From positions 1 through 64,000 of the forward strand of contig JACDHA010000002.1 of assembly GCA_013821315.1 (NCBI GenBank): DNA of 64,000 nucleotides, given 5' to 3'. The position numbers are program-made. Positions within the stretch are counted from its first letter, which is position 1, and each line of letters opens with the position of its first letter. Shown here piece after piece: positions 49,701 through 52,700 of this stretch. The stretch is from Candidatus Babelota bacterium. GTDB lineage: Bacteria > Babelota > Babeliae > Babelales > Babelaceae.

Positions 49701-52700
49701 AATACAAAGCATTGGATAAAAGTCCACATAAGTAATTGGGGTACTTTTTGGAATGCTTTTTTAAAACTGTGTATAAGTGTTGATCCACTAAAAAGAGTAT
49801 AATAGGTAGCTGCTGCAGAAGAGAAAAGCACAACAAAAACTTCAATAAAAAACAAGAGTGTATCTAAACTGCTAGCTGCTAATTCTTGGTTTGGTAGCCG
49901 CTTTGAAAGTGATATATGTTCTGAAAGAATATCAAAAAAACCTCTTCCCATAATAGGCTCAACAAGTAGCGCTGAAACAGAAATATCAGGATCAATGCGA
50001 CTTGTAATATATAAGCGAACAAATTGTGTTGCTGTTATCAAAGCACAAAATAAAAAATATTTTTGATGACTAAAAATAATAGCTTTAAAGGTACCTTGTA
50101 GAATATGCCAGCCCACACGAACTCGTTTAAAAAATCGCATGCCATTACGAGCTTGGCTTAATAATCTTAACATGCTCTTTCCCTTATTTTTCTCGGCCAA
50201 TAAGGTAACCGATAGGTTTTAAACTTTCATAGTTATCACAAATAACTTTAACGATGCCTAATAAGGGCATAAAAAGAATAAGTCCCGGAACTCCCCAAAT
50301 TAAACCACCCGCAACTACCGCAGTTAGTGAAGCTAAAGCATTAGTATGCAGCTGCGATCCAACAATAGAGGGCCTTAAGATATTACCTTCTAAAAATTGA
50401 TTAAAGCTAAAACATGCTGCTACTAGAATAAAACTGCTTAAAGAATCATCTGTTACTAGAGCAGTAATTGCTGGTAGCGCAAAGCTAATAAGTATACCAA
50501 TATAGGGCACACAATTTAAAAGGCCAGCAAGCACAGCCCATAAAAACGCATAGGGTATGCCAATAAAAAAGAGCTCAATAAAAGTAATACAGGTTAATAT
50601 AAGAGCAACAACGGTCATGCCCCATAAGTAGCGTGCAGTTACATGCTCTGCTTGTACAAGTATAGTTTCAAGCCGAGCGTGATGAGATGGTTGTGTGCTA
50701 TATAAAAGAAACTTATACAGGTGACTTTTATAATAAACAAATAAAAATAGATACACAAAAATAAGGAAAAAGCTCATTAAGCCACCAGTAGTACTACTTA
50801 TCATTTGAATAACAATATTGCCGCTTGATTCAATAAAAGACTTGGCACGTGCTTTAATATACTCTGTTTGCCCTGTAGGAGAAATTGCTAGTTTACTTTC
50901 TATTATATGTTGTATTTGATCAAGCTTTTTTTCCAATTTTACGCGTAATTGATTTTTAGGGCTACTAAAACTTATAATTTGGTGTGCTATACTTGCACCC
51001 AGAGCAATAAAAGCAAAGCTTATAGTTAGTACTGCTATACAACTGACTATGGTTTTACTAAAGCCTTTATGCTCAAGAAATTGATTGAGTGGCTGCGTAA
51101 ATAAAGCAAACAGTGCCCCAAAAGCAAGAGGAATTAAAAAAGAGCTCGCATATACCAAAATTATAGTCCCTAAAGTGCCCAATAACAGGAGCAATGTGCT
51201 TTTATAAAGTAAGTTTACGTTAACCACCCATTTTCTCCTCTTATATGTTTAAGTAGTTTAAGCCTAGTGTAAACTGTTTAAGTAAAACAAGAGATGGGCA
51301 TCCAAGAATTAATAAATATCAAGAGTAAAATCATCAAATTTATTTTGTTGCGCTTTATAATGGCCGACAAAAGCTATCATAGCAGCATTATCCGTGCAGT
51401 ACTGCCGTGCTGGTACAAAAAATTCTTTAGAGCGCTTTTGGCAAAATGCATCTAGACGACTACCAATATACTTGTTAGCAGCTACGCCACCTACAAATGC
51501 AACAGCTTTAATGTCTGGATAATGTTTAAATGCTAAAGCCAATTTTTGCTCAAATATATCTGCTACACATACAAGCAGCGAGCTTGCAACTTGTTGTTTA
51601 AACTCAAGATCGTCAGGCTTTAAAAACTTTTTTGCCGCTAAATCATACGCATCTCGTTTAACAAGGTCATACAAAACTGCTGTTTTAAGCCCAGAAAAAC
51701 TAAAATCAAGTGTGTGCGGCATGGGGCGTGGATAGTTAAAAAAATCCTGAAATCCTGCTTGAGCTGCAAGTTGCTCAATAAGGGGGCCCCCTGGATAGGG
51801 TAAATTGATCAATTTAGCTATCTTGTCAAAAGCTTCACCAGCAGCATCATCAAGTGTTTGGCCAATAGTAGTATAATCACCAAAGCCATGCACAATATAT
51901 AAAGCTGTATGACCACCTGAAGCTGTTATGCATAAAAAGGGAAAAGGTATTGTGTGCTCTATGCATGCTGAAAAAGCGTGTCCTTCTAAATGGTTTACAC
52001 CAATAAGTTTTTTGTTGCTGCTCCAAGCAAGTGCTTTAGCAAAGCATACACCTATTAACAATGATCCAGGCAAACCAGGTTTATTGGTTACTGCTATAAT
52101 ATCAATATTTTCAAGTGTAGTATGAGCAGCATTAAGAGCGTCTTGTACTATAACACTCATTTTTTCCATATGGGAGCGTGAAGCTATCTCGGGTACGACG
52201 CCACCATACTGTTGATGCAGCTCTATTTGGGAATAAAGCTTGTTTGACAGTACGCCTTCTTGTGTTGTATATACTGAGGCTGCGGTTTCATCACATGAGC
52301 TTTCGATAGCTAAAACAGTTATATTTTTCATCCACCAGTTCTCATTGACAGAACAACAGAACCTTGTTGCAGTATGGCTTCTTTAACCGGACGATGGACA
52401 GACTTAGAATCAAAAGCAGCCAGCAAGCTATCAGTTGATTGTGCTGTTAACTGCTGTGCTGTAATCGTAGGCTTTATTATAATAGAGGGTAGTAAAACGC
52501 TGGATTCATCAGTATCGGCTGATTCGTCACTTTTTTTTAAAGAATCAATGTGATCAGGATTCATAAGCAAAATAAGTGCTTCTGCTGGTAATCGTAAAGG
52601 AAGAGTCTTTTCAAGCTCTAGTTCAATAGACCACTTTTTATCATCAGTATGACGAATATGAAAGAGCTTGCAAGGTTTGTTTGGTATGCGTTCTAAGTAT

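Follow-up and report, generated by a model that had tools for sequence, protein, structure and literature searches.

The locus described here raises the question of how a bacterium can keep an intact gene for TsaD, the threonylcarbamoyl transferase of t6A synthesis, without having TsaC/Sua5, and where the required threonylcarbamoyl-AMP (TC-AMP) would then come from. The window analyzed, a stretch of 64,000 nucleotides at the start of contig JACDHA010000002.1 from a Candidatus Babelota bacterium, belongs to a genome (G000) that is 97.96% complete in 58 contigs. The obligate-symbiont lifestyle of the Babelota is taken from the phylum literature (PMC6561590, PMC4378268, PMC4776705).

tsaD, its partners and the vacant tsaC slot

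The coordinates of the genes are collected in Table 1. The tsaD product was found to match TIGR03723 with 380.7 bits (curated cut-off 296.1) over model positions 1-313 and is full length. By eye it closely resembles the TsaD of Babela; this likeness and the TLC transporters of the genomes are consistent with the name Babelota. The metal ligands H109, H113, and D296 and the ESSCD and SGGH motifs are all kept (residue roles per PMC13276492), as are the tRNA-contact residues (the GGVVPE loop, L82, D157/D158, K166, and FSFSGLK). The position of R169 in TsaD from T. maritima is occupied by lysine, as it is in E. coli and in 46 of 48 TsaC carriers of the phylum. The protein is a stand-alone TsaD that is not fused to a YrdC-like domain. 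The genes for TsaB and TsaE are found on contigs other than that of tsaD, and the three genes are unlinked.

Table 1. Features of the tsaD locus and of related loci in the same genome; positions without a contig prefix are those of the window.
Feature	Position	Strand	Remarks
rho	47709..48983	plus	conserved neighbour, rate control; named by sequence recognition, no family scan
tsaD	51309..52331	minus	threonylcarbamoyl transferase; intact 340-aa ORF
gene X	52328..52999	minus	223 aa, directly upstream of tsaD, 4-nt overlap
smpB	53691..54149	plus	conserved neighbour, rate control; named by sequence recognition, no family scan
tsaB	C50:35937-36599	minus	full-length; 92 bits, cut-off 69.3
tsaE	C41:43918-44358	plus	full-length; E 3.6e-25
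empty tsaC slot	C16:11000-11259		between Mur-ligase/FolC-like gene and pilA

A search with PF01300 (TsaC/Sua5) matched all 14 control genomes and gave no match over the cut-off in G000, where the best E value (0.02) fell on an unrelated 536-aa ORF. The native TsaCs of the phylum are divergent in sequence. With an HMM constructed from 12 of them, the best E value in G000 was 0.55 for stop-to-stop frames and 0.97 when all six frames were translated across their stops. There was also no match over the cut-off in this genome for PF16861 (TobZ-type), PF00926 (RibB), or PF00899 (ThiF/TcdA).

The ancestral position of tsaC could be located from its neighbors. In 72 of the 81 PF01300-positive genomes for which both coordinates are listed, the gene lies no more than 1.2 kb from the start of a Mur-ligase/FolC-like gene, a neighbor that was assigned by Pfam. 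In G000 the starts of this gene and of pilA lie at C16:10999 and 11260, respectively, which leaves a gap of 261 bp (278 bp if counted from the next ATG), whereas the same flanks are 912 and 915 bp apart in the carriers G011 and G240. The gap is covered in pieces by contigs from two other samples, one of which bridges into pilA; no joint or insertion is seen in these contigs, which come from a single study and are weak evidence for that reason. The slot was surveyed at 60 TsaC-less loci, from 108 TsaC-less genomes. The next gene is pilA in 56 of them, the other four being rearranged, and the gap is 500 bp or shorter in 40 of the 56 loci with both flanks. The slot of G235 holds a tsaC pseudogene, an 86-codon remnant with two stops (L208:618-875, E 3e-13), which we read as a loss in progress. 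At the loci surveyed, the inserts are lineage-specific, and no gene family common to the TsaC-less lineages was found as a replacement.

The survey's finding for this genome was that TsaD, TsaB, and TsaE are intact, that TsaC/Sua5 is missing, and that the gene had been cleanly deleted at C16:10982-11259 with no assembly gap involved. The profile scores and full-length ORFs bear out the first point, and the null results with PF01300 and the native HMM the second. The third agrees with the spacing of the flanks, the piecewise coverage by contigs from other samples, and the short gaps elsewhere in the phylum.

Distribution of TsaC/Sua5 in the phylum

The census covered 261 genomes of the phylum, of which 189 were classed as good (completeness of 90% or more, contamination of 5% or less). 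PF01300 was matched in 153 of the 261 genomes and in 119 of the 189 good ones (63%), so that over a third of the good-quality genomes are without TsaC. The sole match in G057 (L017, G057 C7) is HypF, a hydrogenase-maturation gene in a small genome, and true TsaC/Sua5 is therefore present in at most 152 of the 261. PF01300 is universal in families f4 (14/14) and f18 (12/12), mixed in f11 (5/10), f17 (23/35), and f21 (57/80), and rare in f1 (1/40), f14 (0/6), f19 (0/8), and f13 (1/5). Within one genus, G256 is without it and the remaining 10 genomes have it. Every one of the 189 good genomes matched TsaD, and 187 of them matched TsaE; as read off the table, a strong TsaE match is lacking in three good genomes, each a TsaC carrier. 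TsaB was over the cut-off in 236 of the 261 genomes, and among the good ones only a TsaD cross-hit was obtained for G052 and G175, one a carrier and the other a non-carrier.

The survey had also claimed that the loss recurs while TsaBDE is kept, and this holds on the 261 genomes. In a FastTree phylogeny of 93 genomes (TsaD, SmpB, and Rho), there are 14 maximal TsaC-less groups, five of which are pieces of f1. Because the backbone of this tree is weakly supported, we claim not 14 but at least 8 lineages in which tsaC would have been lost separately. In the control phylum Chlamydiota, PF01300 was matched in 148 of 150 scored genomes (1 further genome was unscored), so that the loss does not reflect a poor detection method and is not something that small genomes of intracellular bacteria show in general.

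The same numbers bear on the explanation that tsaC was simply overlooked through faulty assembly, binning, or divergence. The 58 contigs of G000, the divergent native TsaCs, and the contig-end fragments of tsaC in the carriers G073 and G158 are what this explanation can draw upon. It is opposed by eleven single-contig genomes that match TsaD and not PF01300, by the short gaps and the G235 pseudogene, by the control phylum, and by the cultured Babela genome, for which COG0009 is also 0. We consider it largely refuted and hardly credible.

TsaC/Sua5 may also have been acquired. Long-type Sua5 is present in 14 genomes in nonsyntenic settings, and this suggests that the source of TC-AMP is exchangeable. 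The Sua5 of G260 has its best match in Chlamydiota (49% identity, from a partial scan), which suggests regain by transfer. G260 is labelled f21 yet falls inside the f1 clade of the tree, with an empty slot and the Chlamydiota-like Sua5 (L143, L009, L242). Three of the long-type genes (L002, L007, and L013 of G056, G060, and G066) adjoin a gene for DabA, an inorganic-carbon transporter subunit, which was identified with PF10070 for L013 and by sequence likeness for L002 and L007; a fourth (L003 of G045) adjoins a beta-carbonic anhydrase (PF00484). These neighbors could feed CO2/bicarbonate to Sua5.

To our knowledge, TsaC/Sua5 belongs to a set of about 60 proteins regarded as universal. Thiaville 2014 (PMC4615747) reported TsaC or TsaC2 in every one of 9,176 bacterial genomes, with symbionts losing TsaE or TsaB instead, and Mollicutes keep both TsaC and TsaD (PMC4014445). 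We find the loss of tsaC in the Babelota to be real and robust, in contradiction to this published bacterial universal. As the survey had noted from the supplement of the Babela paper (Pagnier), COG0009 has a count of 0 in Babela and occurs in all of the 47 comparison genomes; the same supplement gives it as 1 in TM6, and TsaB, TsaD, and TsaE as 1 each (PMC4378268). No comment on the absence was found in the consulted sections of the main text of that paper.

The survey had further proposed that the rule by which TsaC and TsaD go together would be broken. The bacterial exception stands, but an archaeal exception, N. equitans, has already been published together with the idea of host supply (Pichard-Kostuch 2023, PMC10321239). 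According to that paper, DPANN ectosymbionts are the only fully sequenced exceptions for Sua5/TsaC. N. equitans and Nanobdella aerobiophila are, like the organism examined here, obligate symbionts without Sua5/TsaC. The transferase (KEOPS) is retained in N. equitans, and it was hypothesized that the host provides either TC-AMP or the enzyme, which is unproven there too (PMC10321239). The Babelota differ in having the bacterial TsaBDE, in being intracellular parasites of eukaryotes, and in having lost the gene repeatedly, with apparent regains, within one phylum. Moreover, the authors' objection to TC-AMP import, growth of N. equitans at 90 °C (PMC10321239), does not apply to Babelota, which do not grow at that temperature. 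What is new relative to N. equitans is a bacterial, repeated, and testable case. The question is testable because Babela massiliensis is without COG0009 and grows in Acanthamoeba (PMC4378268). In the literature searched, no description of TsaC loss in the Babelota/Dependentiae was found, and "Babel" is absent from the text of PMC10321239 that was searched; papers behind subscription, supplements on bioRxiv, and those of PMC10321239 and PMC4776705 fell outside this search and could hold such a description.

Selection on TsaBDE and the fate of t6A

The alignment of TsaD contained 93 sequences (45 TsaC-less, 48 carriers), and as these were taken from the 150 matches with the highest scores, it is biased toward conserved copies. 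Invariant in all 45 and in all 48 are E7, S9, C10, D11, P44, L82, H109, H113, D157, D158, E162, K166, D296, and the SGGH and FS-GLK motifs. These positions contact threonylcarbamoyl, the metal, A37, or the D-stem in the tRNA complex of the T. maritima enzyme (PMC13276492). Of the mapped positions that vary, F39 and V43 do so in both groups, R169 is mostly lysine in both, and V42 is isoleucine in one TsaC-less sequence. Columns that are at least 95% conserved number 108 in the TsaC-less set versus 101 in the carriers. Synonymous sites are saturated under a codon model, and close pairs were therefore used for dN/dS, with pairs of saturated dS dropped (3 of 10 TsaC-less, 1 of 10 carrier). The values obtained for tsaD were 0.035-0.17 for 7 TsaC-less pairs versus 0.03-0.15 for 9 carrier pairs. 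What we take to be the Walker A, SPTF, and HxDLYR motifs of TsaE are present by eye in 12 of 12 TsaC-less sequences, and the GP-FT-LR motif of TsaB, again by eye, in 18 TsaC-less and 19 carrier sequences. Judged from these sequences, TsaBDE in the TsaC-less genomes is under purifying selection, and the conserved catalytic and tRNA-contact residues together with this selection indirectly support a continued synthesis of t6A there, which we hold to be quite probable.

Two sets of observations are less favorable to a working pathway. The tree length of TsaD relative to SmpB and Rho is ~13-14% higher in the TsaC-less genomes (1.45 vs 1.27 and 2.17 vs 1.93; 29 TsaC-less and 22 carrier genomes, unequal in taxa and compared with no statistical test). 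Four good genomes have lower TsaD scores: G245 (TsaC-less) and G247 (a carrier) each have a single frameshift, and of the other two, one has its gene broken up by contig ends and the other carries an in-frame insertion. The frameshift in G245 counts against a pathway that uses host TC-AMP, but that in the carrier G247 is of the same kind.

The higher relative tree length also weakens a host supply of TC-AMP, as does the dispensability of t6A in several free-living bacteria, and both favor the alternative that t6A has been lost and that TsaBDE is retained for another essential job or for placing a different group onto A37. t6A is nonessential in B. subtilis, D. radiodurans, and S. mutans (PMC12632869), the TsaD family has been connected with many further functions (PMC9654439), and a different group on A37 would be compatible with both the retention of TsaBDE and the invariant contacts. 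However, all three unlinked genes are retained, including that for TsaE, which is the first to be lost in other symbionts (PMC4615747), and the residues that contact the tRNA and the threonyl moiety are invariant over deep divergence. We regard this alternative as improbable.

In the tRNA genes of G000, 36-UAA-38 is kept in 14 of 14 ANN-reading genes, which is weak evidence. G000 thus shares with the canonical bacterial pathway TsaB, TsaD, and TsaE with canonical motifs and the 36-UAA-38 tRNAs; the canonical pathway has TsaC or TsaC2, and G000 has neither. No methylthiotransferase of the MiaB/MtaB type was found over the cut-off in G000, and MtaB is therefore uninformative as a witness for t6A. 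Neither of the downstream users of t6A, MtaB and TcdA, is found in this genome to vouch for the modification. Among the other tRNA genes, that for tRNA-Phe(GAA) (C54:28980-29054) has G37 and not A37, though MiaA is present, and two identical genes for tRNA-Asn are found at C2:7169-7244 and C2:23297-23372.

Sources of TC-AMP

A repeated loss of tsaC with TsaBDE under strong selection would mean import of TC-AMP, a novel enzyme, or another use of TsaBDE, any of which would be new. The answer is also relevant to the question of free diffusion versus channelling of TC-AMP in vivo and to the gene lists for minimal genomes. Our preferred reading, which we hold with about even confidence, is that TsaBDE makes t6A with TC-AMP derived from the host. 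After the deletion of tsaC, with TsaB, TsaD, and TsaE remaining intact, TC-AMP would probably be produced by the Sua5/YRDC of the protist host and taken up by a putative transporter, likely of the nucleotide type, both of these steps being speculative; the TsaBDE complex would likely still place t6A on the ANN-reading tRNAs. Since tsaC was lost repeatedly and the slot has not gained any gene shared between lineages, the trait that permits the loss probably goes back to the ancestor of the phylum. In a more specific form, which we offer tentatively, the Babelota would take the minutes-lived TC-AMP from the protist through a repurposed carrier of the ATP/ADP-translocase family, such that the t6A pathway is split between host and parasite and a LUCA-era gene has become disposable many times.

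The chemistry of TC-AMP permits such a separation in vitro. TC-AMP passes a 2-kDa membrane from Sua5 to mitochondrial Qri7, and its maker and user are thus separable (Wan 2013, PMC3695523); that system differs in that yeast Sua5 is itself imported (PMC4615747) and that TsaB and TsaE are not needed. TsaBDE is functional on externally supplied TC-AMP, with a Km of 1.5 uM, and TC-AMP has a half-life of 3.5 min in the presence of Mg and of 16 min in its absence (PMC7913687). E. coli TsaC binds its product tightly, and the bound TC-AMP has a half-life of 160 min (PMC7913687). Given this binding, the half-life, and the Km, the level of free TC-AMP in the host may be low. By a rough estimate, a small metabolite traverses a 10-um cell in <1 s, so that concentration and membranes rather than half-life would be limiting. 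Babela grows inside a vacuole (PMC4378268), which adds one more membrane to be crossed, and Chromulinavorax replicates against the host mitochondrion (PMC6561590).

TLC nucleotide transporters are present in 189 of 189 good genomes. For TM6, a degenerate envelope and TLC paralogs with changes at key residues have been reported (PMC4776705). Chlamydiota likewise have nucleotide transporters (PMC4776705) and keep TsaC nearly throughout, and such transporters alone therefore do not explain the loss. The TLC match counts, which are not copy numbers, show no evident pattern with TsaC loss. Proteins of the mitochondrial-carrier family (PF00153) were considered as importers and rejected: they are patchy (36 of 261 genomes; L325-L354), none was found in G000, and they do not track TsaC loss (12 of 108 TsaC-less vs 24 of 153 PF01300-positive genomes; Fisher p 0.36, with kin that are not independent).

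Entry of the host Sua5/YRDC protein itself, in place of TC-AMP, is very unlikely, as we know of no route for protein import into the Babelota. Such entry has been proposed for N. equitans (PMC10321239), and the import of yeast Sua5 into mitochondria (PMC4615747) and the stabilization of TC-AMP bound to TsaC (PMC7913687) would be in its favor.

It is also conceivable that t6A is still made and that TC-AMP is provided by a bacterial adenylating enzyme, either unrecognized or moonlighting, that was present in the phylum beforehand. This would pose no transport problem, would fit intact TsaBDE and repeated loss with no new gene in the slot, and would sit with a fold screening that covered only a small part of the proteome. 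We nevertheless judge it unlikely. The four families searched (PF01300, PF16861, PF00926, and PF00899) gave no match over the cut-off in G000, and TsaC or Sua5 is still kept by most good genomes. The architecture of TobZ, HypF, and TsaN, in which a YrdC-like domain is fused to a Kae1/TsaD domain, differs from the unfused TsaD of G000, where neither PF01300 nor PF16861 exceeded the cut-off.

The tsaD-coupled gene X was considered as a substitute for TsaC and set aside; its product looks exported and gave no YrdC-like match among the folds listed. The protein is fast-evolving, with an N-terminus that by eye resembles a signal peptide. Of 93 tsaD loci, 82 have an ORF at this place, whether or not the genome carries TsaC, although a few of these ORFs are not homologs. 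No match was found in Pfam, the PDB, or the Atlas, and 1,068 relatives at E ≤ 0.001 are unnamed. The predicted structure is confident (pLDDT 88) and beta-rich, and the structure search gave a best Z of 3.5 to unrelated beta-rich folds, with no YrdC/RibB family among the matches listed. A paralog of gene X is found at C2:30455-31237 of the same genome. Farther along the window, positions 54249-57916 hold a cluster of ORFs that resemble glycan-modifying enzymes, including a near-duplicate pair (55220-56053 and 57161-57916), and a tmRNA is found at 62540-62915.
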